64,000 nt of DNA from an uncultured delta proteobacterium (lineage in GTDB: Bacteria > Desulfobacterota > Desulfobaccia > Desulfobaccales > 0-14-0-80-60-11). Positions 28,896 to 48,895 of the stretch are shown here, piece after piece. The stretch's first letter is position 1. Every line of letters begins with the position of its first letter. The stretch spans positions 1,248,001 through 1,312,000 of the forward strand of contig CAWETI010000003.1 of assembly GCA_963812015.1 (NCBI GenBank), in the 5' to 3' direction. The translations under genes were made by a program, and so were the position numbers. The notes beneath the pieces were generated by a model. It worked only from the letters and a program-made list of their open reading frames with translations. It did not search any database and was not told the origin of the DNA.

Positions 28896-29483
28896 TCAAG
28901 CCTGAGCGGTTTTCTGATACTTCTCCAGCATATCTCTCCTGACGGCAAATAAATTCTCCCCTAAGAGGCAGGTCAGAAGATAGTCCACCAGACGGCTGGG
29001 ATTCTGCCGGTAGATTCCCAGGAGTTGTCTCCAGAATTGCCACCGGTGGCGAGGCCGGATCCCCTGGCGCCAGATCAGATGGAATAAGGCAGTCCAATCC
29101 CTGAGGTCACGGGAGCCAGAAAAGAGGCCCGGGGTGGAGGGGGGCGGGGCCGTTCTGTGCTCCCCGGCCTGCAAGGCCAGGGCCTGCCGGGCCGGCCGCA
29201 TGGTGAGGTAGTAGCGGTAAGCCCGGGCCAGATAGCGGGAAGGCTCGTACAGGCGGTCAATAGCCCGGACGTATTCCGACAAGATTTCTGCCTGGGGGCG
29301 GGTGGGCACGTAGTTGAATTTCAGGTTATAAAAATTACCCGAGGTCTCGCCTTGAACCAGGCGGTCTTCTTTTTCGAGGCGGTCCCACAACTTGGTGCCG
29401 GAAAGAATGTGCAGAAGGTTAAGGACGACTACCGGGATACCGTGCTCCTCGACGAACCGGCAAACCCGGTCCCCGGCGCCGCT
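28896..29483 (-). pseudogene. 5'-truncated B12-binding radical SAM / DUF4070 protein
   Basis: Reads SGAGDRVCRFVEEHGIPVVVLNLLHILSGTKLWDRLEKEDRL..NYVPTRP..LYEP..YL.R. The B12 domain and CxxxCxxC part are missing, and an in-frame stop lies just upstream. Confidence 0.75.
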
Positions 29484-29575
29484 GCAAGGACCAGAATGAC
29501 CGTGGAAACTCAGGATTGATCAACAATACCTGCATAATTTTTCTTGTGCCGGTGAGGCTTGATTGGCTGAGAGCG

Positions 29576-31291
29576 TCAAGGTGTTTGGGTCAACCAGGGG
29601 CGCATGTCGATAAGGCGCACATGCTGATCGATGACCAGACTACGAAAGCTGGGTTCAGAGAGCAAGGCATAATTTTGCCGCCCTGCCGTGATATGTCTGA
29701 TTTGCTCGTCAAAGGGGGCGAAAAATGGGCAGTCAAGCCGGTCGGCCAGCTCCGGGGACACCCCGGGAATATGGGGCTTATCTCCGGGAAAGAGAAAGCC
29801 CCCGCCCTTCAGGAAGGCCGGGGTGAAATGCCGGTCATCGACGATGAGAAAGGCGATGCCATACTTCCGACAGAAGGCCACCACCTCCCGGGGATCGGCG
29901 GCATAATAGGCCCGGAAGAGGTCGGTAAAACGAGGCTGCATTGTGGCCCAGTAACCCCGGCTCCAGACTTGGGCCAGTTCATAGGTGGCAAAGGCCCGGC
30001 GCCGGGCGAAGGTGGGAATGGTGTCCATCAGGTGGGGGTGGCCGGCGATGAGGGCATCCTGGGGCGTGGAGCCCAGGGCGGCATAAAGTTTAGTATAGGC
30101 CGAGTAATCTTTGAGACCGACCCCTTCGAGGCGCCAGGCGCCCAGGAATGCTGCCGCCACCAGCGCCAGGATCGCCAGATGACGGGGCCAGCGTTCCACC
30201 CGGAGCGCCGCCCTGAGGCCCAGGGCCAGAACCAGGCAATTAAAGAGGTTTAAGGTATAGATGAGATACCGGTCGGGGACGAATAACTTTAACAGGAAGA
30301 TCCGAGCCAGGAAATAAAGGAGCAGGGAGGCTAATAACAGGTAGCCGGCGGGTTTGAGCCGTTGCCGCCAGGTGGGCCAGTCCAGTCGCCGGACCCCGAC
30401 CGCCAACAGAGTTAATAGTCCCGCGCAAGCCAGGATGCCGGCCACCAAGCCCCATTCCCGAAACGGCGGGATGAATTCCCAGGGGCTGATGAGTTCCCAC
30501 AGGACGGAAGCCTCCGGCAGGAAGCGGTAACGGCCGTTGGCGTAATATTCGGGATGGTTGACCATCTCTCTGGCGCTCACCAGGGGCCCGTAGCCTGCGG
30601 CGCTGAATTGGAGATTCATGGCCATTACCAGCGCGGCCCCAATGCCCAGGAGAATGAAGTGCCCGGCTTGAGCCGGAAAAGGGGGTGGGCGGTCCCGGCC
30701 CAACCGGGCCAGGAGCCAGGCCAACATCGCCGCCGGAGCCGCCACCAGAAAGATATAGGGGATGAACAGGGCCTGGAGCAAGAGCGCTACGCCCATAACC
30801 CAGGGGCGCCGCTCCTGCCAGCCCAGCCAGAAGAGGGCCAGGAGCGGGGCGGCGAAGGACCGGGACAGACCCCCGGACAGGTTGTCCAGGAAGAAAGGCA
30901 TCAGCCAGAAGACGGCCACCATCATCCAACCCAGGCGGCGGTCCGAGAGGTTCACCCCGATCCTAAAGAGACAGATGGCCAAAAAGACGAACAACCCCCC
31001 CGGCAGCAGCTTGGAGAAATAGAGGGGGGACACCCACCAGGAAGCCAGCCAGTAAAGCCCCTTTACGCCCCAGGGGACGTAGGCCCTTGCATAGCCGGTG
31101 AGAAAGTCGCCCGGGAATAAGGCCGGGTTTTGCCACTGCTGCATCCAGTAGATCTGCTGGCGGACATCGTCATTGATGATATAGGGGTGGGTCAGGGCCT
31201 GGTAGTGGGCCAAAACAAAGATGGCCCCGGAAATCAGGGCCACCAGCAGTTCGGGCCAGGGGGGCGCACTCCGACTTCCCTGAGGCGCCAC
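29576..31291 (-). CDS. Polytopic membrane protein, possible GT-C fold glycosyltransferase
   Basis: Probable GTG start at 31291. TM1 is followed by the acidic loop NDDVRQQIYWMQ, then about 11 TMs and a soluble C-terminal domain. Confidence 0.55.
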   Translation of the reverse strand: MAPQGSRSAPPWPELLVALISGAIFVLAHYQALTHPYIINDDVRQQIYWMQQWQNPALFPGDFLTGYARAYVPWGVKGLYWLASWWVSPLYFSKLLPGGLFVFLAICLFRIGVNLSDRRLGWMMVAVFWLMPFFLDNLSGGLSRSFAAPLLALFWLGWQERRPWVMGVALLLQALFIPYIFLVAAPAAMLAWLLARLGRDRPPPFPAQAGHFILLGIGAALVMAMNLQFSAAGYGPLVSAREMVNHPEYYANGRYRFLPEASVLWELISPWEFIPPFREWGLVAGILACAGLLTLLAVGVRRLDWPTWRQRLKPAGYLLLASLLLYFLARIFLLKLFVPDRYLIYTLNLFNCLVLALGLRAALRVERWPRHLAILALVAAAFLGAWRLEGVGLKDYSAYTKLYAALGSTPQDALIAGHPHLMDTIPTFARRRAFATYELAQVWSRGYWATMQPRFTDLFRAYYAADPREVVAFCRKYGIAFLIVDDRHFTPAFLKGGGFLFPGDKPHIPGVSPELADRLDCPFFAPFDEQIRHITAGRQNYALLSEPSFRSLVIDQHVRLIDMRPWLTQTP

Positions 31292-31295
31292 GATG

Positions 31296-32435
31296 TTAGA
31301 TAGGCTTTTCAAAGACGCGGAAGACCTTATAACGCTGGGCTCCAAAGGCCGTTAAAATCTTGATCCAATGCCGGTGAGTTTCCGGAATCAGGGAAAAATC
31401 GGCCATATCACAGGGAGTGTGCTTCACCAGATAAATATATGAGCGCAGGAACAGGGCAATATGCAGGCGCCGCCGTTGATAGGGCTGGCTGATCCCCACC
31501 ACCATGGCCCGGACCTTACGGAGCGGCCGGTACTTGGCCCAATAGAGGAGGCGGAGTTTACCCCAGAGGGTGAGACGTCCGTTTAACTCCCGGATGAGGG
31601 GATTGAGGTCCGGCAGGCCGATGCCGAAGCCGGCCACCCGGTCATGGTCCAGGAGAACGAAAGCCATTTCCGGGCGTAGACAGGGTTTAACCATCTCCAA
31701 CATGTCATTGAATTGGCGCCGGGTCAGGGGTACGTGGCCCCACAGGGGTTCCCATTCGGTATTGAACAGCTGGAAGACCTCGTCGGCGCGCCGCTTCACT
31801 TCTTTCGGGTTGTAAGTCACTACCTCGACGCTCTGACCGTGCATGATGTCAGCATAGCGGCGTTCCATGGCCTCAAGATCCACATTCCGGTTGGTGATCT
31901 TGTAGGCATGCCAATCCATGGCCTTGACAAACCCCAGGGAAGTCAAAAGATCCTGGTAGTAGGGCGGGTTGTGGGTCTGGAAGATGACCGGCATGGAGTC
32001 AAACCCCTCCACCAGCAGGCCCATCTCGTCATAGATACAGAAATTCAAAGGTCCCACCAGGCGGGTCTTGCCATGGGCCCGGAGCCAGGCGGCCGCCGCC
32101 TCAAACAGGGCCGCGGCTGCGTCCTGGTCCTGGATACACTCAAAGAACCCGAAGAAGCCGGTTTCCGGGCCATGATGGGTGTCATGGAGCCGGTTGATGT
32201 GGGCGGACAGGCGCCCGATGGGTTTGCCGTTACGATAGGCCAGAAAATATCGCGCTTCCCCAATTTCAAAGAAGGAGCCGTGTTTGGGGTCCAGAAACTT
32301 GCGCTCGTGGTCGAGGATAGGAGGGACCCAGTAGGGATCTCCCTGGTAAATCCGCCAAGGGAAGCGGAGAAATTCCCAAAAGGCCGCGTCATTCTCAACG
32401 GGAGAAACCGTAATCTCCTCGGTTAAGTGCATCAA
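31296..32435 (-). CDS. YghO-like GNAT N-acyltransferase; candidate bacterial ceramide synthase (bCerS)
   Basis: FPW.IY.GDP.WVPP, GR.SAHIN, GFFGFFE, AA.WL..G...L.GP.N, HNPPYY, WGHVPLT and PDLN motifs typical of the YghO/bCerS family. Confidence 0.75.
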   Translation of the reverse strand: MMHLTEEITVSPVENDAAFWEFLRFPWRIYQGDPYWVPPILDHERKFLDPKHGSFFEIGEARYFLAYRNGKPIGRLSAHINRLHDTHHGPETGFFGFFECIQDQDAAAALFEAAAAWLRAHGKTRLVGPLNFCIYDEMGLLVEGFDSMPVIFQTHNPPYYQDLLTSLGFVKAMDWHAYKITNRNVDLEAMERRYADIMHGQSVEVVTYNPKEVKRRADEVFQLFNTEWEPLWGHVPLTRRQFNDMLEMVKPCLRPEMAFVLLDHDRVAGFGIGLPDLNPLIRELNGRLTLWGKLRLLYWAKYRPLRKVRAMVVGISQPYQRRRLHIALFLRSYIYLVKHTPCDMADFSLIPETHRHWIKILTAFGAQRYKVFRVFEKPI

Positions 32436-32443
32436 TGTACCTC

Positions 32444-33412
32444 TTATTGGGATTTGGGCAGAACGATGCGAGCCTTCAAGCCTTCTTTTAAGGCCAGATC
32501 GGGGTTGGGGACCTTTAACTCTACTTCATAGTAGGCAGGCTGATCCGGGCCGGAGGTAATTGAGGACCAGGAGATGCGGCTGACCTTGCCCTGGAATTTT
32601 CGCCCCGGCAGGGCGTCCAAGGTCAATTCGGCCAGATCGCCGATTTTGATCTGGAGCGCCTCGATTTCAAAAGCCTGGGCCCGCACCACCATGGGGTCCA
32701 TCACGCCCACTTGAAAGGCGGCCGGCAAGGGGGTCAGTTCGGCGTCAACCCGGATTTCGGGGTTGACCCAGATGACGTAACCGCTGATGGGCGCCTTCAG
32801 ACTTACTTCCCGGGGAACCTGGCCGGATTTTAAGGAAGTCCCCAGCAACTGGCTCAAGACCTCCCGGTCCTGCTGGGCCAGTTGGCGGTCCTTTTGCACC
32901 CTCTCCTGGATGGTTGACTTTTGTTTATTCAGAAACTGCATTTCCTGGGTAGTCTGGGCCAGAGTCTGGGGTGGGGCCAACTTTTTCTGGACCAATTGGG
33001 TGAGTTCCCGTTGTTTGGTCTGCACGGGCACGAGACTCCGTTCCACATCCGCCAGTTTCGTCTCCATTTCGGCAAGTTGGGGCGGCGAGAGACGTTGTTG
33101 GATTGCCATGAGGGATTCCGGGGCGAGGCTATAGGTCGCCAGGATTTCTCCTGCTTTTACGGGCTGCCCGGAGACCACCCGTAGGGCCGTGATGATCCCC
33201 TTAAAGGGCAGATCGATGCGCCGTTTCAGGGAGCAGAATAGTTTCCCGTTAAAGATTATTTCTGACTCCCCGGAGGGGGGAGGCGGCGAGGGCTTGGCGA
33301 CCGGAGCTTCGGCGGCGTATCCGGCCTCCAGGTTGCCTAGGCCCAGGCAGATGGCCAAAACCAGGCCGCCCAGGGCTAACCGCTTACTTTTGCCAAGAGT
33401 TCTCATCCACAT
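32444..33412 (-). CDS. Periplasmic adaptor (membrane fusion protein, MacA/HlyD-like)
   Basis: Signal anchor, G.PVKAGEILA lipoyl half, coiled coil, LKAPISG.V and NPD..LK.G motifs. Confidence 0.85.
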   Translation of the reverse strand: MWMRTLGKSKRLALGGLVLAICLGLGNLEAGYAAEAPVAKPSPPPPSGESEIIFNGKLFCSLKRRIDLPFKGIITALRVVSGQPVKAGEILATYSLAPESLMAIQQRLSPPQLAEMETKLADVERSLVPVQTKQRELTQLVQKKLAPPQTLAQTTQEMQFLNKQKSTIQERVQKDRQLAQQDREVLSQLLGTSLKSGQVPREVSLKAPISGYVIWVNPEIRVDAELTPLPAAFQVGVMDPMVVRAQAFEIEALQIKIGDLAELTLDALPGRKFQGKVSRISWSSITSGPDQPAYYEVELKVPNPDLALKEGLKARIVLPKSQ

Positions 33413-34862
33413 AAGTATTACCTAAGTCTCCCGAAAGCTCCCGAAGCTTCAGAACCGCCATGTCATACTGCAAGCCATTGCGTACCGCTTCCTTTTGGGC
33501 CTCCAGCACCTCTTTGCGACTTTCCAAGAACACCGGGAGCGTCACCTCTCCAGAGTGGTACCGTACTTCTTTCTGGTGAGTCTTGAGCCGAGCCAGTTCT
33601 TCCCGGGCTTGGGAATTTTTCAGGGCCACTTGTTTTTCTTGAATGTCCACCAGGTATTCGTACCATTTCTCTTCCAGAAAATTCGCTTTGACATCTTTTT
33701 GGGCTCCGATCTGCTTTAAAACGGCCTTTTGTCGGGAGACGTTGCGGACCCGTTTAAGTCCATCCCACACCGGGATCTCGAGACCGACGCCGACATAGAG
33801 GCCATGGGCAGTGGTCACACTCAAGGGGTCCGGCGTCTGGGTGTTGAATAAAATGGTGGGAAAGACCTTGGCGATGGCCAGGGAGACATTATAACCCTGC
33901 AGCTTTTTATGGATCTCGAGAGCCTTGAGTTCGTAGGAGCGGCTCTTGGCTTGTTCCAGGGAAGCGGTGGCCGGAGCGAAATTGCCCAAGACCTGGCGCT
34001 GGCTGTCCCGGAAATTAACGGTGATATCCTGGTTGGCCGGCAACCCCAAGAAATTCCTCAGGAGGACTGAAATCCGCTTAATGGACAGAGCGATTCCCTC
34101 CTCCTCGCCCTGGGCCAATTGCAATTCCTGCTGGGCCACCTTGACTTCCAGGGAGGTGCCGGTCCCTATATTCATCCGATTTTCCCCGTAGGTGAGGTTC
34201 TCCCGGGCCACCTTAATCAGGTCCTTCTGATAGCCTGCCAACTTGTTCAGGGCATCCAGTTGCAGGTAATAATTCCCCAACGCGTACAGACCCTGGGAAA
34301 TAACTTTGAGATGGGTGAGCACCGCCACTTGCGTGGCCAACTTCTGGGCTTGGAGACTGAAGTACGCTCCCATTGGGTTATACGGGTCCGTCGAAAAGCT
34401 TAAACTATAGGGTGCGCCGCTCAATCCTGCCCCAGAAGGACGGTTGACATAATAATAAGTCCGAAAAGTTAAGGGGGGCACCATGCCGTAGCGACTGTCG
34501 GTTTCGTCCATCCGGCGGATGTCTATATCCAGGGAACTCTGCATTAAACGAGGCGACCGGTTTATCGCGATCCTGACACTGTCTTCAAAGCTCAGCGGGG
34601 AGCCAGGAACAACGGTCTGGGCAGTCGGGTTCGACTCGGCGCCCTGGGCCTGCCGGCACACGCAGATAACCCCGCTGGCCATAACCAGTAGGGCGACGAT
34701 CAGGCAGGCTTGCGTGGCGGCGCTCCAAGAGGAGAAACTAAGAGGGGTTTGCCAGAAACGCCGTGCCGCTCGGGCGTTGTCAACCATAGCGTACAGAGAA
34801 CTCCCCGCAAGGCTGGTTCTGGTGGTCAGGCGCAATTGAGGCTTCCTGGTAAGTAGGCTCAT
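33384..34862 (-). CDS. TolC-family outer membrane efflux protein
   Basis: LSFEDSVRIAI..SP, two helical repeats, R...GTGT.LEV and GLEIPVWDG motifs. Confidence 0.8.
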   Translation of the reverse strand: MSLLTRKPQLRLTTRTSLAGSSLYAMVDNARAARRFWQTPLSFSSWSAATQACLIVALLVMASGVICVCRQAQGAESNPTAQTVVPGSPLSFEDSVRIAINRSPRLMQSSLDIDIRRMDETDSRYGMVPPLTFRTYYYVNRPSGAGLSGAPYSLSFSTDPYNPMGAYFSLQAQKLATQVAVLTHLKVISQGLYALGNYYLQLDALNKLAGYQKDLIKVARENLTYGENRMNIGTGTSLEVKVAQQELQLAQGEEEGIALSIKRISVLLRNFLGLPANQDITVNFRDSQRQVLGNFAPATASLEQAKSRSYELKALEIHKKLQGYNVSLAIAKVFPTILFNTQTPDPLSVTTAHGLYVGVGLEIPVWDGLKRVRNVSRQKAVLKQIGAQKDVKANFLEEKWYEYLVDIQEKQVALKNSQAREELARLKTHQKEVRYHSGEVTLPVFLESRKEVLEAQKEAVRNGLQYDMAVLKLRELSGDLGNTYVDENSWQK

Positions 34863-35566
34863 TGTTCATAGAGGACGCCGTCTCGTATCGAACTGATCCG
34901 GGTGCATCTAGCGGCAATTTCGGGGTCATGCGTGACGACTATTACGGCAGTCTTACCGTCACTGACGATTTCTCCAAAATGTTCCATGATCAGGTGCCCA
35001 TGACTCCGGTCAAGCTGTCCGGTGGGTTCGTCCGCCAGGATGACCTGGGGTTGGTTGACTAAGGCCCGGGCCACGGCCACCCTCTGGCGCTCACCCCCGG
35101 AAAGGCGATTGGAGGAGTGGTGAATCCGGTGCTCCAGGTTCACGCGTTCCAGGGCGGCGGTAATCAGTTCCGGTCGGTCCCGGCGTTCAACTCCGGCATA
35201 GATTAAGGGAAATTCCAGGTTTTCATACACGGTGGAGTTTTCAAACAGATCGCAGCTCTGAAAAACAAATCCCACGCGGCTGCGACGAAATTCCGCCTGG
35301 GCGTTGCGATCCAGGTTGAGCACATCTCTACCCCCCAGGAAATACGAGCCGCTGGTGGGATGGAGAAAAATCCCCAGGATAAAGAGTAAGGTGGACTTCC
35401 CGGACCCGGAAGGCCCCATGATCGCCAGAATCTCCCCGGGGTAGACCTTCATGTTGACATCGCGCAGCACGTGGATCATATCGATGCCATTGTCGTAGGT
35501 CTTGTACAGGTCGGACACCTGAATCAAGGCGCCGTTGGCCTGCAGGGTAGATGCCGACTCATTCAT
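34859..35566 (-). CDS. ABC transporter ATP-binding protein (MacB/LolD type)
   Basis: GPSGSGKST, LSGGERQRVA, ILADEPTG and VTHD motifs. Confidence 0.93.
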   Translation of the reverse strand: MNESASTLQANGALIQVSDLYKTYDNGIDMIHVLRDVNMKVYPGEILAIMGPSGSGKSTLLFILGIFLHPTSGSYFLGGRDVLNLDRNAQAEFRRSRVGFVFQSCDLFENSTVYENLEFPLIYAGVERRDRPELITAALERVNLEHRIHHSSNRLSGGERQRVAVARALVNQPQVILADEPTGQLDRSHGHLIMEHFGEIVSDGKTAVIVVTHDPEIAARCTRISSIRDGVLYEQ

Positions 35567-36734
35567 AGCGGATGGCGGTAACTACTTCCATGCGACTGGC
35601 CCGGATTGAAGGATAGAGGCCAGCCCCCACGCCAATCACCACCGCGAACAGAAAGGCCAGGGTCACTCCGAAGAGAAAGAGATTTTCCGGCGGTCGACTG
35701 CCGATGCAATAACTCAGGATCTCCATCATGATGCGGCCCATCCCGGCCCCTAAGAGGGCTGCCCCGCCGCTCAGGCAGAGAGCTTCGGCGAGGAATTGCG
35801 CCAGAATATCCCGATCTTCGGCCCCCATGGCTTTTTTTAACCCGATTTCCCGGGTCCGGGAGGTTACCGCGGCCATCATGACGTTCCAGATGCCGACGCC
35901 CCCCAGGAGGAAAGTGGCGCTGGTCGCCAGGTAGATCAGAAACTCGATCCACCAAGCCAGCTCCTGAACCCGTTTTAACGCTTCCCAGCCGCCCTCGACG
36001 TGAAGTTCCTCGGGTGACTGGCAGGATGCCACCACCCCGGGAATCGCAGCCGCTACGTCGCGAACATCATCCCAGGTGGTGCACCGCAGATAAAGACGGT
36101 CGGCCAACAGTCTGCCTTGAAAGCGATCAATGGCGGTGGTGAGGGGCAGAAACGCGGAGTTAGATAAGGTGCTATCGGTAACTCCCCCCAACACCCCGGC
36201 TATCCGATAGATCTCCTGGTTAATCTCCAGGATTTTGCCTTTGACGTTGGTGTCGCCAAAAATCTTCTTAGCCAGTTCCGCCCCTAAAACGATCTCCCGC
36301 TTATGCCCGGTTACGTCTTCCTCCCCGAACAGTCTCCCGGTTATCGGCCAGAAATTGCGGACCTGCCAGAAAGACGCATCCACCGCCATGGTGGTGAAGC
36401 CAAAGTGCTGGCCATGCCAGTTGGCTTGACCCCACTTGGCGGCTGTGAGGGATAATTCTTTGACGGCGTGGAGCTTTCTCAGGGCGGCGAGGGTCTGGTC
36501 CCGGAACCACTGGGGCCGGTAAGATCGAGTATTATCAAAGCTGATTCTGAGGATGGTGACGCCGCCGATCAGGTCAAGATTCTCGTTGAAGTTTTTCTTG
36601 ACCTCCCGGCTCATGGTGACGATGTTGAGGAAGCCAGCCACGCCCAAAGCGATAGCCAACACCACCCCGATATAGCGGCGGCGATGACGCAGTACTTGGC
36701 GCAAACTTACGCGTATGAGGTCGTTGAGCCTCAA
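35559..36734 (-). CDS. ABC transporter permease (MacB/FtsX type)
   Basis: TM1, a large periplasmic domain, GGVGIWNVM...V..RTREIGL.KAMGA and the C-terminal YPS.RAS....A.RYE motif. Confidence 0.9.
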   Translation of the reverse strand: MRLNDLIRVSLRQVLRHRRRYIGVVLAIALGVAGFLNIVTMSREVKKNFNENLDLIGGVTILRISFDNTRSYRPQWFRDQTLAALRKLHAVKELSLTAAKWGQANWHGQHFGFTTMAVDASFWQVRNFWPITGRLFGEEDVTGHKREIVLGAELAKKIFGDTNVKGKILEINQEIYRIAGVLGGVTDSTLSNSAFLPLTTAIDRFQGRLLADRLYLRCTTWDDVRDVAAAIPGVVASCQSPEELHVEGGWEALKRVQELAWWIEFLIYLATSATFLLGGVGIWNVMMAAVTSRTREIGLKKAMGAEDRDILAQFLAEALCLSGGAALLGAGMGRIMMEILSYCIGSRPPENLFLFGVTLAFLFAVVIGVGAGLYPSIRASRMEVVTAIRYE

Positions 36735-36762
36735 GCAGGACGTTCCCCCAAATTAGTGTAAA

Positions 36763-38061
36763 TCAATCGCCCAGCATGCTGACGGCGGTGCCATTGGCAC
36801 TGGGATAGGTGGTAGAAAACCCACTCTCCTCCAGGAAAGCATCCGGCTGGGTGAAGTCACAAGCCCGGATACGATGTTTCTTAGCTAATTTTTCCAAAGT
36901 TTCGAGGACATAGCTAATCTGGCTTTCCTTGTGAGTGCTCATGTAAGCCGTGCGGATTACCGCCTGCCCCCGCGGCACTGCGGGATAGATGGCAGGCAAG
37001 GCAAAAACGCCATGCTCAAACATGTCGCGCGCGAAGAGAGCGGCTTTCTCTTCTGCCCCAATATAAATGGGGATGATGGGGGATTTTGAGTTTTTGGTAA
37101 TGAGGCCAATCTCCCGGTAGCCCGCATGGACACGGCGAGTGATGTCCCAGAGGCGGGTAACCCGGTCTGGGTCCTCGTCCAGGATATCCAGGCACGCCAG
37201 GACGGTGGCGGTGTTGCTGGCGGGAAGCGCCGCAGAAAAGATGAGCGGTTTGGAATGGTGCCGCAGATACTCCAGCACCGCCTCATCGTCGGCGGCAATG
37301 AACCCGCCGATGGAGGCCAACGCCTTGCTGAAAGTTCCCATGATGAAGTCTACTTCAGCCGTGAGTCCGAAATGATCGGCGGTTCCCCGTCCCCCCCGAC
37401 CCATCACTCCCAACCCATGGGCGTCATCCAGATAGATCAGCAAGTCTGGATGGCTCTTCTTCAGCGCCACCAGTTCGTCCAGGGGTGCCAGATCCCCGGA
37501 CATGCTAAACACGCCTTCGGTGACCAGGAGCAGGCAGCCGTTGGCGTTCTTCTGGCGGGCGGCCGCCAACTTGCGGGACGCAGCCGCGGCATCGTTGTGA
37601 CCAAAGGGGATCAATCGAGCCCGTGAGGCCTGACACCCCTCAAAAATGCTGGCGTGGCCTTCCCGGTCACAGACGATGATGTCTTGGGGGGTCAACATAC
37701 AGGCAATCGACCCCAAATTTGTGGTGAACCCGGTGGCGTGGACCACCGCCTTTTTCTTACCGACAAAGGCGGCCAGTCGATCCTCTAGGGTCTCGTGCAA
37801 GGTCAAGTTGCCGCACAAAAATCGGGATCCCCCGGGGCCACTCCCCCACCGACGTGCAGCTTTGGCCGTTGCCTCAATTACTCTGGGATCGTGTGTGAAT
37901 CCCAGGTAGTCGTTGGACCCAATCATAATCAGACGCCGGCCCGACACCTCCACTTCTGTGCCCCATGATCGGTCTATGGGCCGGAAGTAAGGGTAAAACC
38001 CTTGTTCCTTGGCGTCTTGGACCATAAGAGCAAAAGGTTGGCAGCGGTTTCTAAGTTTCAT
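36763..38061 (-). CDS. PLP-dependent alpha-oxoamine synthase, serine palmitoyltransferase-like
   Basis: G.YPYFRPI, MIGSNDYLG, GSRFLCG, HASI, DDAHGLG and GTFSKALASIGG (PLP Lys) motifs. YPYF and GTFSK.LASIGG resemble bacterial Spt more than Kbl/BioF. Confidence 0.78.
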   Translation of the reverse strand: MKLRNRCQPFALMVQDAKEQGFYPYFRPIDRSWGTEVEVSGRRLIMIGSNDYLGFTHDPRVIEATAKAARRWGSGPGGSRFLCGNLTLHETLEDRLAAFVGKKKAVVHATGFTTNLGSIACMLTPQDIIVCDREGHASIFEGCQASRARLIPFGHNDAAAASRKLAAARQKNANGCLLLVTEGVFSMSGDLAPLDELVALKKSHPDLLIYLDDAHGLGVMGRGGRGTADHFGLTAEVDFIMGTFSKALASIGGFIAADDEAVLEYLRHHSKPLIFSAALPASNTATVLACLDILDEDPDRVTRLWDITRRVHAGYREIGLITKNSKSPIIPIYIGAEEKAALFARDMFEHGVFALPAIYPAVPRGQAVIRTAYMSTHKESQISYVLETLEKLAKKHRIRACDFTQPDAFLEESGFSTTYPSANGTAVSMLGD

Positions 38062-38101
38062 AAAAGGATTCTACCCCCTCCCCCTCCGGTAGGTTTACAC
38101 C

Positions 38102-38130
38102 TTTTTAGTGCTATCTTAAGAAAATGTCAA
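38102..38130 (-). promoter_or_regulatory. Putative sigma70 promoter for the spt operon
   Basis: On the - strand: TTGACA (38130-38125), a 17-nt spacer, then TAAAAA; a GGAGG-rich RBS lies before ATG 38061. Confidence 0.45.
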
Positions 38131-38614
38131 TGAGATTTGTATTAACAAGTAGATAAACTCCCCCATACCGCCCATTGACATCTCGTATCCTACCACAAAC
38201 GAATCCATTTTTTGACAAAAAAATCTGCTGTCTCGCGATATATCGGTAAATATTAAAGATTATAACAATTTTTTTTTGAAATCCCCTAGTCTCCGGAAAA
38301 ATTTTTAGAAAGTTCACAGTGCTGGTCCCTTCTGGCATGAGGTTTGATTCAATCCGCAAGTTGGATGCGAACCCGTCTTGGCGCCCACCTGCCAACCGGC
38401 AAAGAACAAGGGAACGGATAACCCCCGGCGTCTCTGGCCAGGTTCCCCTGCCAGGGGATTAATCATTAGACCAACCCCACGATCTTGATGTTAAGCCTTG
38501 GGGATTGATCATGGAATGAATCCTTCCCCTGCTAAAATTGATAAGCGGCCCTATACAGGAAAAGGAACCAGAAATCCAGGAAATCCGGGCTTATAGTTCA
38601 TTCGCCTGCATTTT

Positions 38615-39091
38615 TTACAAACCGGCATCGCCAGGACCGCCAAACTCCATGGCCATGATGGTCTCCTGATTTGGATCGCAATCCTCCATGCTCAGACTGC
38701 CCTTGGGGCCGGGGCCTTTAGGAAGGATTTTCTTTACTTCGATCCGAAAGGGAACGACCTTCTCCTGCAGCTTAGCCTTGATAGCATTGATTTCTTTGAG
38801 CTTGGCCAGGATTTGTTTTTCATCCGGATTGTCAGCACGCCAGAGAGTCCTCAACTCCGCCTTTTTGACTAACTTTTCCTTGCGCAAACTGGCGGTGTCA
38901 TCCAGAAATTTCTGCCGCAGATCGAAAAGTTTTCCCGCCTGCTCCGGGGTAAGGTTAGCAAATTTACCCCAATGACCCCCATGCCCCCGGTGTCCCTTCA
39001 TCCCCCCAGGCTGCGCCCAAGAGGCAAAGGCCAGGCTCAAAAATAATCCCAGAGCCAGCAATACCACTACTGATAACTTCTTACCTTTCAT
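38615..39091 (-). CDS. Spy/CpxP/ZraP-family periplasmic protein
   Basis: Signal peptide, G/H/M-rich linker, LTPEQ motif, helical domain with NPD. Confidence 0.8.
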   Translation of the reverse strand: MKGKKLSVVVLLALGLFLSLAFASWAQPGGMKGHRGHGGHWGKFANLTPEQAGKLFDLRQKFLDDTASLRKEKLVKKAELRTLWRADNPDEKQILAKLKEINAIKAKLQEKVVPFRIEVKKILPKGPGPKGSLSMEDCDPNQETIMAMEFGGPGDAGL

Positions 39092-39269
39092 TTTCCTCCC
39101 CCCTTGGCTTGAATTTCTAAGCCCGCATATCTGGCCCTTAATTATTAAACCCTAAAAATAAAATAAACCGGCGTGGCGTACACAAAATTTTCAGATAGAC
39201 AGGCGAGTGAGGAACTGAAGACATTAAATCAGGGATTTGCCGCCAAGCAAAATACTGCTTCTGAGATGG

Positions 39270-39820
39270 TTACCAATTTCCCCGGCCACGGCCGCCGGAA
39301 CCCATGCCGCCGCGCCCCCTGCCTTCGGTCCCTAGCCCATCGGGACCCTGCCCCCGAAAGAGCGGTGCGCCTTTCTCGTCCCGCACTTTCAGTGTGTGGC
39401 CGTTCTTTTTCACCTTGGCCGCGAGCAGTAAGGTCGTCTCGTCCTTGGCAACCTCAGAGCCTGTCACCTCCAGGGTATCCCCCTTTCTTAACGCAAAGCC
39501 TTGCTTATATACCAGGGATGACCTAACTTGATAGTAATATTGCCTTTATCGGTCTTAAGCACCAATCCCTGGATCGCCATCCCCGAGGCTGCCCGCCATC
39601 CCTGCATTCCATAGCGTCCCAGGTCCTCCACCTGTCCTTAAACCGTGGTCACGGTCTGGGGATTGTATACCTGGCGGCCCTGTGCTCCGAAGCCACCGTC
39701 CTACCCGCTACTCTGCCCAAGACCGCGACTTTGCACCGCCGCCGTCCAAGCCATTACCATTATCATGGTAAGAATAATCGGTGATAACCACCATCTAGTG
39801 CTCAAATGAATTTTAGGCAT
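39270..39820 (-). pseudogene. Degraded secreted OB-fold-like protein gene
   Basis: From ATG 39820: signal peptide, in-frame TAG, YNPQTVTTV, TAA, GQVEDLG..LVLKTDKG.ITI.LGHPWY, frameshift, then KQGFALRKGDTLEVTGS..LRDEKGAPLF-like end. Confidence 0.7.
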
Positions 39821-40137
39821 CCCTTATACCGGCCATGGGCTCCTCTGATAATCCTGCCTTGATATAAAGCATATTCAATTTCCTGAGGCCCGGCTTGAGC
39901 CCGGAATACCATCCCGGCAGCAGCTTGACCAGCATAACTCATGGGTAGGAAGGCGTTCATGAGTGCTCTGGGCCCCCACCCAACAGAGGTCGTATCGCCT
40001 GGGCCTGGCCGGGCGGGATGGTGGGGAAGGCATCAGGACAAAACTTACGGTATTCTCCCGGGGTTATGGCCGGGAAAGCATGAGAGCCGCGGTTGAGAGC
40101 GATGGAGCATTTTCTGGCCAACCCCTTCTGCATCCTC

Positions 40138-41385
40138 TTAGCCATTCGGCGTCCTGGGGGCGCAACTTATAAATCCCTGGTCCCGAATCCCCACCGTTGC
40201 CGGGTTCACCCCCCGGGAGGGAATCAGGCCGAGGAGCAGGTGGAAAAACCAACAACTTTGGGGAAAAAGCAGCCCATCAAAGAGTTGAAAATGCGCCAGC
40301 GCCGCGATAAGGGGGAACAGGAGTACCAGGGGATGGAAAAACAGCCCCGGCGGGGGTTTGAAGGCCAGGCCTATCAATCTGGCCAGGAGAATCCCCAGGG
40401 CGGCCAGATAGGTCAGGGTGAAAGGAAACCCCATACCAACCAAAAAAGTTAACAACATATTGTCGGCGCTGACGAGGTCGCGCACGTTTTGGGTAAAATG
40501 CGTTTTGGTGGCGTCCGGGTATTTGGTCTGGTAATCCTGAAGAAATATATCCCGGGGGGCCCGAAGGCCGATCCCGAGCCAGGGATATTTTTTAGCAATA
40601 CTCCAGGAGAAAGGGAAGTTTTCAACCCGGTAAGCAGGATAGGCCAGGGAGAGCTTGTGCCAGATGATTTTTTGATGAAGCACTCCCACCACCAGGGCCA
40701 TGGCCAGGCATAAGATCACAAAATATTTCCAGCGCAGGGTTCCAAATAAGACGCCCACCAGGCAGACTCCCAGGGGGATGAACACCACGGATATCCTTTC
40801 GCTGAGGCACAAAGTGATATAGCTGAGGGCCAGGAGGATGAGACCCAGGAGCATCAAGGGCCGCGACTTGCGGCCCAGCAGGGACAAGGGCGCAAAGGAC
40901 AGGAGCAGAATCACATTGGTGAGGGGATGGCTGCGGTCACAGATAAAATGTTCAATGTAGCCGGTGAGCATGTACCCCAGGAAGCTGAGGAGCAGCAGTC
41001 CTCCCAATAATCCCAGGCAGAGCCAGGTAAACCGGCGTTGATTTTCCGGAGTCTGCAGCAGGAGCCGGGCGCACCAAAATCCTCCCAACCCGGAGCTTAA
41101 TAAAGCGAACACCCGGAAGGAAGAAGGTAAGGGAGTGAGGCTGAAGGCCGCGCCCACCCCGGCCATCACCGCCAGGGCCGCGGAAATCAAGCATTCCGGC
41201 GACCTGAGCTTGATGGCGCCTCGGGGGCTGAGGACCACCGCCACCACCAGGGTGAGGAAACACAGCAAGCCGGAAAACAGGTTGGTTCTCTCCCCGGCCA
41301 CCAACAAGAACGAGGGGTGCTGCAAGACCAACTGGCAGGAGGTGGCGGCAAAAAATATCCAGATAACCTTTTCCGATCCGGTCAT
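40138..41385 (-). CDS. O-antigen ligase-like (Wzy_C) membrane protein
   Basis: About 12 TMs; SERIS, YRVE...W.I....PWLGIG and DN.LL motifs. Start taken at ATG 41385 (alternative 41505). Confidence 0.65.
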   Translation of the reverse strand: MTGSEKVIWIFFAATSCQLVLQHPSFLLVAGERTNLFSGLLCFLTLVVAVVLSPRGAIKLRSPECLISAALAVMAGVGAAFSLTPLPSSFRVFALLSSGLGGFWCARLLLQTPENQRRFTWLCLGLLGGLLLLSFLGYMLTGYIEHFICDRSHPLTNVILLLSFAPLSLLGRKSRPLMLLGLILLALSYITLCLSERISVVFIPLGVCLVGVLFGTLRWKYFVILCLAMALVVGVLHQKIIWHKLSLAYPAYRVENFPFSWSIAKKYPWLGIGLRAPRDIFLQDYQTKYPDATKTHFTQNVRDLVSADNMLLTFLVGMGFPFTLTYLAALGILLARLIGLAFKPPPGLFFHPLVLLFPLIAALAHFQLFDGLLFPQSCWFFHLLLGLIPSRGVNPATVGIRDQGFISCAPRTPNG

Positions 41386-41614
41386 TGCTGCCGATTCTCT
41401 TGGGGCCGCCACCCCGGTGAGGTCAAGCGGTTTGCTTTTTGGGAAAAATCTTAGTATGAAATTCACGTGACAGGTCAGCGCGCCAGGCGAGGCGTCCTTG
41501 CCCATTTGGCCTCAGATAGCCGGTGACTGGTGATGCGCAGCAGATTCGTGGGTTCGGTCCACCCAAAGCATTATTAACCTTATTTATTAGCAGATAATCA
41601 GGAGAAATGAAAGT

Positions 41615-42448
41615 ATGTTGGCCGGAAAAAAAGTGTTGGTGGTCATGCCCGCCTATAATGCCGCCCAAACCCTGGAACGCACCTTCCGGGACATCCCCGC
41701 TGATGTGGTGGATGATGTGTTGTTAGTGGACGACGCCTCCCACGATGAGACGGTGGAGGTGGCCCGGCGGCTCGGCATCCGGTGTTTTCTGCATGAGCGG
41801 AACCTGGGCTATGGTCGCAACCAGAAAACCTGTTACACCGAGGCCTTGAAATTGGGCGCCGATATCGTGGTGATGGTCCACCCCGATTATCAATATTCCC
41901 CAAAAATCATCCCGGCCCTGGCCGGCTTGGTGGCCAGCGGCGAATACGAGGTGGCCATCGGCTCCAGAATTTTAGGAGGGAAAACCCGGCAGGGGGGTAT
42001 GCCCGTCTATAAATATTTATTCAACCGCATGCTCACCCTCTTCCAAAATCTGCTCCTGGGCGCCAAACTCTCCGAGTACCACACGGGTTTTCGGGCCTTC
42101 TCCCGGAAAGTCCTGGAGACCCTCCCCCTGTGGGAGAACTCTGACGATTTTGTTTTCGACAACCAGATGCTGGCCCAGGTCATTTACTTCGGTTTTCCCA
42201 TCGGCGAGGTTTCCTGTCCCACCCGCTATTTCGAGGAAGCCTCTTCCATCAATTTTCCCCGGAGCGTGAAATACGGCCTGGGAGTAGTGGCGACTTCGGT
42301 GCAATTTTTTCTGCAAAAGCGCGGCTGGGTCCACTGCCGCATCTTTTCACCCCAGGGCCGGGGGCTCAGGCCCGGAAATTATTATGCCGAATCGGAGACG
42401 GGCCAGGCTGGCTCCAGCCCCTCGCCGCCGGCTGCCTCCCCTGAATGA
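41615..42448 (+). CDS. Glycosyltransferase family 2 (DPM1-like polyprenyl-phosphate sugar synthase)
   Basis: [29 protein letters not shown] and YHTGFRAF motifs. Confidence 0.88.
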
Positions 42449-42513
42449 GCCGGGGGCTGTCACTGCGTTTCAGGTATTGCAGCCGGCTAGTTCGGGGCAG
42501 GTGAAGGGCAGGC

Positions 42514-43602
42514 TCAAAGGCCGGGGGGTTCCTTAAGCCCGGCAACCTGACCGATCTGCGTCTCCCCGCTCCTCCGCCAGTCCTCCCCCAGTTCCGCCAG
42601 GGTCACGCCCTGCACCGGGCCGGTCTGCACCAGCCAGGTCAGGAAGGTGCGAATCTTAGCTGTAAACCGGTTGACCGCGGCCTCGGTGGGAAAGAGTCGG
42701 GAGGCCCCGGGTTTGAGCTCGGAGGAGTGGAAAAACATGGTAAGCACCCGGCCCCCGCGCCGGCGGTGCAGGGAGGCCGCTAATTTAAGGGGATAAAGGG
42801 GATACCAGGCCGGCTGCACCCCCGAGACGGCCAAATACCGGAATAACCAGCGCAGGCGTCTGCCCCAGGGAGGGGAGGCCAATGCGGCCAGGCGCGCCAC
42901 CAACTCCGGAGTCCCGGGCACCGTCGGTACCATGGTGATGGGGACCTCCAGCAGATTTCTCCCCCCCGGCCTGGAGTCCCAGAGGGGAAAAGGGTCCGCC
43001 GGGGCCAGAAAACCCCGGGGATCGGGATTCTTATAGGTGAGGGGCGCCACGCTGCTGTCCACCTCGAGGTCGAACTCCGGCAAGAGGCTCCAGACCTGAG
43101 GACCCGCATCAAACCGACCCATGCGGAAGGATCGGGGCTTGACCTCCAGGGCGTTTCGGACCTGGGCGGTCAAGTTGGCGAATTTGTCCCGGAGGAGTCC
43201 CCGGGGCAGGCGTTCGGAGCGCACCGGTTCGGGCTCGGGCGGATCAAGAAAAGGCGGGGTGTTCCAGGGGTGCAGATGGAGGCCGATCTCCGCCCCGTAG
43301 CGGTCCCGCCAGTGGGCCAGGACCCGGCAGGCGGCGGGGTCTTGGGCTACCCGGTAGGTGACCAGGAGGGTCAGGGGCAGGCCGAACTCCTGGGGGATGA
43401 ACGCCAGACGCTCCAGTTCGGCCACGTTGGTCACGCCCGGGGGGGTACGGGGATAGAGGCCGGAAAACAGCCCTTCCTCTTCCACGTCCAGGGAGATCAC
43501 CAATTTCATGGGCCATCCGCCCGGCTGGTCCTGATGATTCCCGCCATGGGGATTGAACAGGATAGGCTGATCCTCGGGTTGTGGTTCCTTGACGTCCATC
43601 AT
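42514..43602 (-). CDS. Polysaccharide deacetylase-like protein (WalW/CE4-like)
   Basis: SLDVEEE, EIGLHLHPWNTPP, SFRMGRF, DSS and FHSSEL.PG motifs. Confidence 0.75.
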   Translation of the reverse strand: MMDVKEPQPEDQPILFNPHGGNHQDQPGGWPMKLVISLDVEEEGLFSGLYPRTPPGVTNVAELERLAFIPQEFGLPLTLLVTYRVAQDPAACRVLAHWRDRYGAEIGLHLHPWNTPPFLDPPEPEPVRSERLPRGLLRDKFANLTAQVRNALEVKPRSFRMGRFDAGPQVWSLLPEFDLEVDSSVAPLTYKNPDPRGFLAPADPFPLWDSRPGGRNLLEVPITMVPTVPGTPELVARLAALASPPWGRRLRWLFRYLAVSGVQPAWYPLYPLKLAASLHRRRGGRVLTMFFHSSELKPGASRLFPTEAAVNRFTAKIRTFLTWLVQTGPVQGVTLAELGEDWRRSGETQIGQVAGLKEPPGL

Positions 43603-44804
43603 CTCAGGTCCAGGACCACCTTGAGGCTCTGGTGGCGGCGCTTGTCGAAGGCCGCCTGGAAGGCCCGGCGGTAATCGGCCAGCGGGAAGAGGTGGGAAAC
43701 CAGCCCCTGGGAGGGGTAATCCCCCCGGGCCAGCAATTCCACGGCCTTGGGATAGGTCCGGACGGTCTGGCCCTGACAGACGCCGTAGGCGTAGGTGGAG
43801 GAGCCGGTGAGCTTGAGCTCCCTAAACCACAGGCTGGAGATATCCACCGGGCCCAAGGCCCCGGCGGTCCCCACCAGGACGTAGGTCCCCCGGCCCCTCA
43901 GGGTCAGGAGCCCCTCTTGCAAGGAGGTCTTGGACCCGACACAGTCGAAGAACAGGTCGGCGCCGCCCTCCAGGTTGCCGCCCCCCAGGGTGGTGAGTAC
44001 CAGGCGGGCCCCCACGGCGTCTCCCAGCAGGGTCCGGCCGGGGTTCGACATGACCACGCTGGCTCCCCCTTCAATGGCCAGTTCCGCCTGGAAGGGGTAC
44101 CGGGCCACCATCACCACCCGGGCGGCGGAGCCCAGGGCCCGGAGCAGACGAATCAGGTGCTGGCCGATGATGCCGGCGCCATAAATCACCACGGTGTGGC
44201 GGTCGTCCGGAAAGTGGTCCAGGACCGGTTGAAGGGCCGAGGCCAGGGAATCGGCGAGCACCGCCACCTCATCCGGGAGATTGTCCGGCACCCGCACCAG
44301 CCGGCTGGGATGGGCGGCCATCATCTCGGCCATGCCGCCCCCCACGCCCCGGGTGAGGCCCAGAATCACCCCGGGGGCCAACTCACCCTCCAGGAAATTT
44401 TCGCAGAGGTTATAGGCCCCTGCGGCGCAGTAACGGCACGGCGGCACCCCCCTGACTTCGCAGGGAAGGACCGGCTCCACCACCACCCGGTCCCCCGGCC
44501 GCCATTCCGACCCCGAGGGGGCTTCCGCCACTTCGGCCACTACCTCGTGGCCCAAGACCGCCGGCAGGGAGGCGTAGGGTTCCAGCAAAAAGGATTCGGC
44601 GCCCTTGAGCAGCCCCAGGTCGGAACCGCAGATGCCGCACAGGCGGGGGCGCAGTACCACCCAGGAAGGCCCGGGGGGGCTGAACTCCACTTCTTGCAAC
44701 CTGAGGGGCGCCACCCGGGCAAAGAAGGTCCGATGCCAGAAGCGGTTCAGGCCTTTGGCCAGTAAGTAGCGCCAGACCGAGCGATAATAAACCAGGGCTT
44801 TCAT
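43599..44804 (-). CDS. Zinc-dependent medium-chain dehydrogenase/reductase
   Basis: CGICGSD, LGHE, structural-Zn C..CxxC..C and GAGIIG motifs. Confidence 0.88.
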   Translation of the reverse strand: MKALVYYRSVWRYLLAKGLNRFWHRTFFARVAPLRLQEVEFSPPGPSWVVLRPRLCGICGSDLGLLKGAESFLLEPYASLPAVLGHEVVAEVAEAPSGSEWRPGDRVVVEPVLPCEVRGVPPCRYCAAGAYNLCENFLEGELAPGVILGLTRGVGGGMAEMMAAHPSRLVRVPDNLPDEVAVLADSLASALQPVLDHFPDDRHTVVIYGAGIIGQHLIRLLRALGSAARVVMVARYPFQAELAIEGGASVVMSNPGRTLLGDAVGARLVLTTLGGGNLEGGADLFFDCVGSKTSLQEGLLTLRGRGTYVLVGTAGALGPVDISSLWFRELKLTGSSTYAYGVCQGQTVRTYPKAVELLARGDYPSQGLVSHLFPLADYRRAFQAAFDKRRHQSLKVVLDLR

Positions 44805-45001
44805 GGGATTCGATTTATCGTGGGACAGGTTTCCTTTTTCGTGCTTCCCAGGACTCTGTCCCGGGAAGGGGAGCTTGTCAAGACCATTCTTTCTCCCGGG
44901 GGTTGGGGATTCAACCGCATTGGGGTATAATGGCTGATAAATTGGGACTCGTCAGGCCCCGCGGCGTTTATTATACCAAAATATCGAGGAACATAATTTT
45001 C

Positions 45002-46216: not shown

Positions 46217-46230
46217 GATGCAGAGAACTT

Positions 46231-46374
46231 GTGGGGGAGGGGTGCAGGAGCGGGACAGCCGTTGCCTCCCCCCCAACCTCCCTTCTCCACACCCGTTCAG
46301 GGGGTTGGGAGGGGAGTTTGAGGGGAGGGCGGGGGACTTGACTTACGAAAAATCCCCCGGCCCTCTCCTCAAAA
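46231..46374. repeat. G/C-rich compound palindromic element
   Basis: Inverted arms TTTGAGGGGAGGGCGGGGGA (about 46317-46336) / TCCCCCGGCCCTCTCCTCAAA (about 46353-46373), plus TGGGGGAGG / CCTCCCCCCA upstream. Confidence 0.6.
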
Positions 46375-46397
46375 CCATTCCTGCCTCCTCAGCCCCG

Positions 46398-47471: not shown

Positions 47472-47473
47472 AG

Positions 47474-48712: not shown

Positions 48713-48747
48713 ATGATTATCCATACCTCAAAGATGAGCGGTGCATA

Positions 48748-48895
48748 AAGTCCCCCTTTGAAAACGGGGGATTTCTTCTCGTCCCCAAGCTTGGCTTGGC
48801 AACCAGAAGAAAGAACCGCCGGGGGTGGCTGTTCCCCATGTGCATGGCTGATCGTCACCCGCCGGGGTCCTCGGCCCTGAGCCCGTGCCACCCGT
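48748..48895. repeat. Cluster of degenerate palindromic repeats between convergent genes (possible bidirectional terminator)
   Basis: AAGTCCCCCTTT-GAAA-ACGGGGGATTT hairpin, followed by a CCCAAGCTTGGCTTGG remnant resembling the 57248 element. Confidence 0.4.

Follow-up and report, generated by a model that had tools for sequence, protein, structure and literature searches.

A conserved seven-gene operon of Desulfobaccales that may make a ceramide-type lipid and export a glycosylated form of it through a MacB-TolC pump

We analysed a 64,000-nucleotide (nt) stretch from an uncultured delta proteobacterium (assembly GCA_963812015.1, contig CAWETI010000003.1, positions 1,248,001 to 1,312,000; hereafter, the window), in which seven minus-strand genes at 29576-38061 place an Spt-clade enzyme, a bCerS-family acyltransferase and a membrane glycosyltransferase around a MacB-TolC pump. 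The product of this operon is very probably of the sphingoid or ceramide type, and comparison of gene neighbourhoods makes it reasonably likely that the pump carries that product. On balance, and with a slight preference, we read the locus as an operon for the synthesis of a ceramide-type lipid and the export of that lipid in glycosylated form. A first-pass annotation, made from the sequence alone, had proposed dihydroceramide or oxo-ceramide synthesis; ceramide-type synthesis is supported here, but a glycosylated ceramide is the more likely product than bare ceramide or oxo-ceramide. Its guess at an anaerobic deltaproteobacterial lineage holds, the named relatives being Desulfobaccales metagenome-assembled genomes.

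The seven-gene operon is real. As read from the sequence, its open reading frames (ORFs) are, in order, spt, macB, an ATPase gene, tolC, an adaptor gene, a GNAT gene and a GT-C gene, and all seven were recovered with the span, strand and order first described. Based on the longest-ORF starts, the successive junctions are a gap of 28 nt, overlaps of 8, 4 and 29 nt, a gap of 8 nt and an overlap of 50 nt. The earlier figure of about 30 nt or less per junction is correct for five junctions but not for the GNAT/GT-C overlap of 50 nt, a value that depends on the uncertain TTG start of the last gene. The Pfam matches along the operon are Aminotran_1_2, MacB_PCD with FtsX, ABC_tran, OEP, HlyD_D23 and a weak Acetyltransf_1, and the scan of the last gene (29576-31345) gave no family. 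A sigma70-like promoter candidate, TTGACA-17 nt-TAAAAA, can be read on the minus strand at 38102-38130, 40 nt before the first ATG of spt. This motif, part of the first description, keeps its TTGAC in 14 of 16 aligned upstream regions, but the promoter and terminator consensus scan did not call it and returned 2 sites versus 5.0 in shuffled sequences, that is, no excess.

By its PDB match, NCBIfam scores, tree position and pocket residues, the product of the first gene (36763-38061, minus strand; 432 amino acids, aa) is an alpha-oxoamine synthase of the Spt clade with an Spt-type pocket. Its best PDB match is the Sphingobacterium SPT with 334 bits, followed by a match with 262 bits; the cysteate enzymes reach 246 and 222 bits. 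In a tree of 36 rows, a set without Caulobacter and CFAT sequences, the enzyme falls inside the Spt clade of 21 rows (support 100/97), apart from Kbl, BioF and HemA, and its clade neighbours are E. coli BL21 Spt and Bacteroides-type and Roseomonas-type enzymes. Only the E. coli BL21 gene in this tree is annotated as spt; the labels Bacteroides, Parabacteroides, Rahnella, Roseomonas and Aureispira were assigned in this analysis. The pocket of S. multivorum SPT comprises His138, Asp210, His213, GTFSKS with Lys244, Asn52, Ser81, Tyr27 and Phe83 (PMC10196870), and the window enzyme keeps it as H136, D213, H216, GTFSK246A, N50, S79, Y25 and F81, with Ala instead of Ser as the final residue of the pyridoxal phosphate motif. 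The grouping in the tree bears out the first-pass call of an Spt-like enzyme, as does a separate bioF in the bio operon of the same genome, which encodes a further pair of oxoamine synthases that do not belong to the Spt clade. From clade and pocket we infer that the enzyme condenses serine with a long acyl thioester, which would give a 3-oxo long-chain base as the first step of the pathway.

A BioF/Kbl-type housekeeping enzyme standing by chance beside an unrelated drug pump would account for the zinc dehydrogenase found near the oxoamine synthase, an arrangement that resembles tdh-kbl. Nevertheless, the Spt-clade tree, the separate bioF, the score of 80.7 of that dehydrogenase against the Tdh model (cut-off 380) and a gene order conserved across three families all speak against it, and the explanation, already contradicted by the tree and by the co-distribution of Spt with the adaptor, retains next to no probability. 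The additional oxoamine synthases of the genome (L063:7769-9037 and L064:7476-8744) are near-identical, each stands behind an MlaC-like gene near an SGNH protein, and a B12 radical SAM/DUF4070 gene comes after one of them.

Two features weigh against a plain Spt function. The enzyme scores below every NCBIfam Spt cut-off (NF047600, the Bacteroidota Spt model and the best match, 432.8 against 640; NF047599, 341.4 against 500; NF047603, 265.2 against 670), these models being lineage-specific, and its own subclade stands on a long stem of 1.01 changes per column in the tree. Because of the missed cut-offs and the long stem, its substrate could differ. Use of another amino acid (cysteate, alanine or glycine), leading to a sulfonolipid or a 1-deoxy-ceramide, would agree with this stem, with G77 and D51, which differ from the Sphingobacterium enzyme, with a sulfotransferase gene adjoining the cluster in two relatives (G077 and G068), and with Black Sea data, where Desulfobacterota and Bacteroidota correlate with 1-deoxy- and sulfono-ceramides (PMC11334938). 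The cysteate enzymes (CFAT/SulA) have a remodelled pocket with Lys280/281, Ala82 and Phe113-Gly-Tyr115 (PMC13692747), and the window enzyme has A277, S79 and T110-G-F112 there in a hand mapping via 8GUH numbering. It carries the SPT letters where the cysteate enzymes differ (S79, T110-G-F112, N115, S138 and S245, besides the hand-mapped Ala277 versus CFAT Lys280). These residues, the lower bit scores of the cysteate enzymes and a GT21-like enzyme in the neighbourhood, which would require a 1-hydroxyl, render another amino acid an improbable substrate.

The sixth gene (31296-32435, minus strand) encodes a 379-aa N-acyltransferase of the bCerS/YghO family, GNAT1 subclade, as judged by YghO homology and conserved columns. 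It aligns with YghO from the sphingolipid cluster of E. coli BL21 at 31% over 376 aa (E 2e-59). For Caulobacter CC_1154, an N-acyltransferase that has been called CerS (PMC11324152), the orthologue given in PMC9386255 is yghO (ECD_02850). The protein keeps 28 of 31 family-conserved columns, and GNAT1 forms its own subclade inside the family. Concerning the three changed columns, L40I is conservative, G323R is common to YghO, and N354H is peculiar to the GNAT1 clade; the last counts against the assignment, as the Asn found in 25 of 26 other family members becomes His/Leu in GNAT1. A PDB sequence search gave 0 matches at E 1, and no NCBIfam model matched. The proposal of a bCerS-like GNAT is upheld by full-length homology, from which the protein would be expected to N-acylate the long-chain base in the second step.

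The co-occurrence of these enzymes with the pump was assessed in 83 genomes of the order. Spt was matched in 68, of which 67 have orthologues of 64% or more, and the adaptor was likewise present in 68, including all 67 Spt-positive genomes; in 62 of these it lies within 7 kb of spt, and in the other five the genes are split over contigs. Within one family, Spt is retained in 64 of 68 genomes, with 85-96% identity in the nearer genera. Among the operon loci read, only G065 departs from the order spt-macB-ATPase-tolC-adaptor, its macB now following the adaptor and a GT2 gene. The window-type GNAT is present in 53 of the 67 Spt genomes, and the remaining 14 each have another bCerS-family gene. 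The fixed core is therefore spt-macB-ATPase-tolC-adaptor, with an exchangeable GNAT: the first-pass pairing of Spt and bCerS in one operon is co-conserved, but the invariant pair is Spt and the pump. In a phylum sample of 401 genomes, the Spt subclade (60% or more) occurs in 17, namely 13 of the window's family plus G450, G364, G431 and G417. The full seven-gene order recurs in G450 and G364, which belong to another family, and the five-gene core in G431, of a third family, so that the expected co-conservation of the operon genes stands. Finally, a metagenome search with MacB returned 80 loci, 60 of them with 400 nt or more upstream, and spt was found upstream of macB in 43 of the 46 loci at 60% identity or more.

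The four genes between spt and the GNAT gene, all on the minus strand, form a complete type VII ABC tripartite set, with a four-helix permease bearing a periplasmic domain, an ATPase, an adaptor and TolC. The MacB/FtsX-type permease (35559-36734; 391 aa, four transmembrane helices predicted by hydropathy) has seven PDB matches, all of the MacB/YknZ/YtrF type. The ATPase (34859-35566; 235 aa) is of the MacB/LolD type, with 219.5 and 216.4 bits against the MacB and LolD models, both below cut-off. The TolC-family outer-membrane channel (33384-34862; 492 aa) has two OEP stretches and one hydrophobic segment (50-68), and its true start is probably downstream of the first ATG. The periplasmic adaptor, a membrane fusion protein (32444-33412; 322 aa), has an N-terminal anchor and weak matches to the RND_mfp, DevB and MacA models in addition to HlyD_D23. 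All equivalog scores are below cut-off, and the set is not assigned by them to MacB, LolCDE or DevBCA proper.

The last gene (29576-31345, minus strand) encodes a 589-aa membrane glycosyltransferase of predicted GT-C fold, in which the loop behind helix 1 carries an invariant NDDxRQQ. The model built from 9 sequences has a pLDDT of 68.6 (a single-sequence model, at 44.4, was set aside), and its top Foldseek and VIA-align matches are all GT-C enzymes (AglB, Pmt, STT3, ArnT, AftA and PglB; Z 19.2-17.1), the first unrelated row having a Z of 5.9. The acidic motif in its first external loop includes the invariant D59-D60, and a PDB profile search with the GT-C alignment gave 0 matches. A second GT-C copy (64%) stands behind an SGNH protein elsewhere in the genome (G000:C3:796298-798022; L084:7266-9026).

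A co-conserved glycosylation and redox block at 41615-53061, absent from the first-pass annotation, travels with the operon in relatives. Its GT2 protein (41615-42448, plus strand) is of the polyprenyl-phosphate sugar synthase type, with a Pfam GT2 match and weak matches to AglJ, PpgS and dolichyl-P hexose transferase models; it is 73-94% identical beside spt in relatives and is a candidate supplier of the GT-C donor. The next gene (42514-43602, minus strand) encodes a polysaccharide-deacetylase-like protein that has no Pfam match and is co-located in relatives; its atlas neighbours are named deacetylase, and PF01522 occurs on 14% of one cluster. A radical SAM/SPASM protein (44903-46216, plus strand), 62-89% identical near spt or glycosylation genes in relatives, may, as a guess, modify the head-group sugar. 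There follow a GT4 glycosyltransferase with an uncertain start (47027-48712, plus strand) and a GT1/MJ1255-type glycosyltransferase (48904-49956, minus strand), identified by Pfam, the latter also by NCBIfam, and both co-conserved in relatives. The ceramide-glucosyltransferase/HpnI-like enzyme (GT21-like; 50029-51240, minus strand), whose only PDB matches are ceramide glucosyltransferase (E 5.7e-12), is a candidate first-sugar transferase. Beside it, as in relatives, lies a Wzx-type flippase gene (51409-53061, minus strand; Pfam Polysacc_synt), and it is plausible that the GT2, the deacetylase-like protein and this flippase complete a head-group line. In the proposed pathway, the GT21-like, GT4 and GT1 enzymes would build the sugar head in the cytoplasm and Wzx would flip it across the inner membrane, after which the periplasmic GT-C enzyme, whose fold is predicted with the matches above, could add a further sugar to this lipid from a polyprenyl-phosphate donor.

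Of the 83 genomes, 65 carry the GT21-like gene. Family f2 includes 11 genomes without Spt; the gene is missing from all of these, and squalene-hopene cyclase is found in 10 of them. Because of this absence, we consider that the gene follows Spt and not hopanoids. A hopanoid (HpnI) role was rejected on this distribution, which tracks Spt rather than shc, and on a score of 77.5 against the HpnI model TIGR03472 (cut-off 310). The own genome has a squalene-hopene cyclase match at G000:C3:1624938-1626812, with an open frame of 627 aa and one internal TGA. The GT2-deacetylase-GT-C trio is reminiscent of ArnC-ArnD-ArnT, and because of this resemblance lipid A is a possible alternative acceptor of the GT-C enzyme; lpxC is present in the genome. 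Replacement of lipopolysaccharide, as in Sphingomonas, was considered and is unlikely, since lpxC is present.

Evidence on the cargo of the pump comes from two rearranged systems. In G417, a gene of the same Spt subclade (60%) is followed in one run (L294:9786-18385) by genes for a LolA-like protein, an MmpL/RND protein with a sterol-sensing domain and a cNMP-binding domain, a 478-aa protein without a Pfam match, bCerS and a short-chain dehydrogenase/reductase (SDR). An unrelated lipid transporter, of MmpL-LolA type, occupies the slot of the pump there. The SDR of this run was considered as a KDSR and not so called, the yeast-type KDSR (8jat) ranking only 45th among many SDRs. In genus g79, a gut-type lineage of 10 genomes with four loci read, a 37-39% MacB homologue follows a GT21-like gene and precedes an ATPase of 666-678 aa, which in the one scanned (G153, L202:10095-12131; further loci L203-L205) is fused to a GT4 domain. 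In two g79 genomes read further, tolC and the adaptor gene stand beside genes for an acyltransferase/ACP (acyl carrier protein) protein, a divergent oxoamine synthase, GT4 and a deacetylase, and a bCerS-CerR pair is located elsewhere. This layout links the pump family with an acyl product that is glycosylated, and the MmpL swap together with the ATPase-GT4 fusion points to a glycolipid cargo. By its gene position and by analogy with DevBCA-HgdD, the MacB-ATPase-adaptor-TolC assembly would lift the lipid from the periplasmic leaflet and carry it across the outer membrane.

Other observations pull the opposite way. The oxoamine synthase beside tolC and the adaptor gene in g79 falls outside the Spt clade. 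In G230, the pump sits with glycosylation genes, and cerR-spt-bcerS is on another contig; the MacB copies of family f54 stand alone; and spt was upstream in none of the 14 metagenome loci with MacB at 55-59% identity, most of which look like second copies, with glycosyltransferase, radical SAM or GT-C genes next to them. Additionally, TolC channels open to the medium, which suits secretion better than insertion into the outer leaflet. As a separate observation, the g79 locus at L234:7764-15371 (G153), like L236 (G386), holds a very divergent oxoamine synthase with Tyr at the conserved Asn50, transcribed divergently from the acyltransferase/ACP, tolC and adaptor genes; no Spt-clade gene was found in G153 or G386 with the window's query, and these genes could possibly represent an unrecognised sphingolipid-like pathway.

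These layouts leave room for a pump that carries some other product of the glycosylation block (a glycan, glycoprotein or glycoconjugate), with the ceramide using an ordinary Lpt or Mla route. Even with spt missing or at another place (G230, g79 and the second MacB copies), the MacB subfamily is still accompanied by deacetylase, GT4, GT21-like and flippase genes, and genes of the ordinary routes, LptF, LptG and MlaC-like, are present in the own genome. Nevertheless, the adjacency of spt and the pump is never broken in the order, while the glycosylation genes and the GNAT move, and in G417 it is an MmpL system that takes the slot of the pump. We therefore consider another cargo unlikely, if still to be taken seriously. 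A reading in which the product is a secreted natural product of sphingoid type, or else a toxic long-chain base, and the pump serves secretion or self-protection rather than envelope building, is less likely again. Release of cargo to the medium is the general behaviour of MacB-TolC pumps, and an iterative polyketide synthase (PKS), of the class linked to the locus here, makes sphinganines as secondary metabolites together with an oxoamine synthase in Pseudomonas (PMC12134224). The retention in 64 of 68 genomes of one family, the 85-96% conservation and the envelope-glycan gene neighbours favour a structural lipid over a patchy antibiotic cluster.

The third step of this pathway, reduction of the 3-oxo group, would be carried out by CerR where present or, as gene distribution suggests, by a zinc-dependent medium-chain reductase (MDR) encoded at 43599-44804 on the minus strand (Pfam ADH_N and ADH_zinc_N). 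Its cofactor loop, A-R-Y, aligns with A-R-S of the NADP(H) ketose reductase 1e3j, and the reaction of threonine dehydrogenase, run backwards, is the reduction of a 2-amino-3-ketone. Within the window, no cerR was found in or near the operon, and the CerR-like gene elsewhere in the genome is 32% identical to that of E. coli BL21; CerR-like genes at E 1e-50 or better occur in 23 of the 83 genomes. The MDR is present in 62 of the 67 Spt genomes, lies within 25 kb of spt in 48 and is adjacent to it in 11, on the same strand in all three such loci read. In the phylum sample, the close form (62% or more) is confined to 15 genomes, each of which carries the operon. PKS-type CerR is found in four of the five Spt genomes without the MDR versus seven of the 62 with it; the Fisher p values for MDR versus CerR, 0.002 and 0.025, are overstated, as kin are not independent. 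Among genomes from outside the order, the MDR occurs without a CerR-like gene in G450 and G364, and G431 shows the reverse. Because the MDR tends to alternate with CerR across genomes, it may replace CerR. Two counts argue otherwise: 16 of the 62 MDR-positive genomes also have a CerR-like gene, and G069 has neither. Thus, the assignment of the MDR as the 3-oxo reductase is tentative, with somewhat less than an even chance, and the main alternative role is sugar modification. An amphipathic N-terminal insert was rejected as a mark of a lipid substrate, since distant MDRs (32-39%) in unrelated contexts also have it; among 15 such loci, an epimerase gene is a neighbour in one and spt lies within 1.5 kb in none.

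The own genome has a second cluster (G000:C2:814073-825094, minus strand; L061:73-11095) with genes for a bCerS-like protein, a 2661-aa iterative PKS with domain order NMO-KS-AT-ACP-KR-DH, a phosphopantetheinyl transferase (PPTase) and a CerR-like protein. Because this PKS-PPTase-CerR-bCerS cluster adjoins the spt operon in G065, G076 and G077, the two loci are tied to one pathway; the PKS-linked CerR-like gene occurs in 11 of the 83 genomes. A third module, in G038 (L070:4991-8838), G034 (L071) and G019 (L082), comprises CerR-like, B12 radical SAM and bCerS-like genes without spt, with a diacylglycerol-kinase-like gene nearby, and might serve for salvage. In G019, which is 97% complete, the CerR-bCerS pair is present but there is no Spt match at E 1e-80.

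As in the ceramide pathway of Caulobacter and E. coli BL21 (Spt-bCerS-CerR; yghO-aasR-cerR-acpR-spt), the window has an Spt-clade enzyme and a full-length bCerS/YghO homologue. Unlike the BL21 cluster, the operon lacks acpR, aasR and cerR and has a pump and a GT-C gene built in, and its Spt is of the Bacteroidota/deltaproteobacterial type. PMC11324152 states that cerS is always in a different operon from spt; contrary to this, bcerS shares an operon with spt in the window, and spt-bcerS neighbours turned up in other phyla too. Sphingolipid transport in Caulobacter has been assigned to LptF2/LptG2/LptC2 with LptB (bioRxiv 10.64898/2026.04.12.717747), a system that likewise has its transporter genes inside the sphingolipid locus. 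The window differs in having a type VII (MacB-like) ABC pump with adaptor and TolC. The same preprint expects other transport routes where lptFG is single, and the window's genome is such a case: it contains one lptF and one lptG only, together with MlaC-like genes. It further proposes for Myxococcus xanthus an MmpL downstream of spt, which like the window places a transporter directly after spt; G417 shows this Myxococcus-like layout with the window's Spt subclade, while the window's own transporter class is unrelated. DevBCA-HgdD (TolC) of Anabaena, reported to export heterocyst glycolipids (PMC6161253), resembles the window pump in its ABC permease, ATPase, adaptor and TolC and in weak matches of the window proteins to the DevA, DevB and DevC models; it differs in that the window scores lie under all three cut-offs, the permease is closer to MacB and the proposed cargo is ceramide-based. 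The PfSgaAB(C) system of Pseudomonas fluorescens MYb115 shows that an oxoamine synthase with Spt activity can be supplied by an iterative type I PKS (PMC12134224). The PKS of the window's genome, with PPTase, CerR-like and bCerS genes and adjoining the operon in three relatives, is similar in kind; as a difference, the PKS-linked CerR-like gene is limited to the 11 genomes mentioned.

Several features around the operon complete the description. Downstream, a B12-dependent radical SAM/DUF4070 pseudogene (28896-29535, minus strand), likewise absent from the first-pass annotation, corresponds to an eighth operon gene of some relatives and matches residues 1-18 and 318-518 of an intact 535-aa gene in one of them (L009), about 300 codons having been lost. 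A large surface-polysaccharide cluster at 1-28694, with many GT4/GT2, flippase, WcaJ-like, gmd and fcl genes by sequence reading and with low-GC parts, converges on the operon and adjoins it in several relatives too. Upstream, the 40-nt leader before spt (38062-38101) is near-invariant across genera and has a short inverted repeat, CTACC...GGTAG, around a G-rich ribosome-binding region. At 38300-41505, a zraP-like gene replaces the gene found directly upstream of spt in most relatives, which encodes either a membrane protein with nine helices (about 450 aa) or a PMT-like GT-C. Contigs of relatives from RNA runs (13 runs, share 0.05-0.08, four runs covering all 30 bins) cannot show transcription or a single transcript and were not counted as evidence.

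According to PMC11087976, no sphingolipid flippase or transporter had been identified. The open-access literature yielded no publication describing a MacB-TolC pump within a sphingolipid locus, nor one on an MDR-type reductase, no search having been aimed at the MDR; an SDR-type KDSR is known from Bacteroides (PMC9278070). Spt-like genes of Desulfobacterota are already in print (PMC11334938), and the supplements of that paper, with trees and gene neighbourhoods, may list these loci. The broadest proposal would have two parts: MacB-TolC would join LptF2G2 and the proposed MmpL as a third sphingolipid transport system in bacteria, with a glycosylated ceramide cargo crossing the whole envelope, possibly to an outer glycolipid coat like the heterocyst layer, and the zinc MDR would be a third class of 3-oxo reductase besides CerR and the SDR-type KDSR. 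That both parts hold together is doubtful, and we consider it rather unlikely.

Because relatives of the adaptor bear the names of cultured sulfate reducers (Solidesulfovibrio magneticus RS-1, Fundidesulfovibrio and Desulfolutivibrio), the claim is testable. With synthesis enzymes flanking an envelope-spanning pump in one operon of anaerobic relatives of sulfate reducers, the locus provides a named candidate for a sphingolipid route to the bacterial surface and, where genomes have no CerR, puts forward a candidate for the reductase that is missing. Environmental lipid studies have tied sphingolipids to Desulfobacterota (PMC11334938), and the locus offers a set of genes for these lipids.

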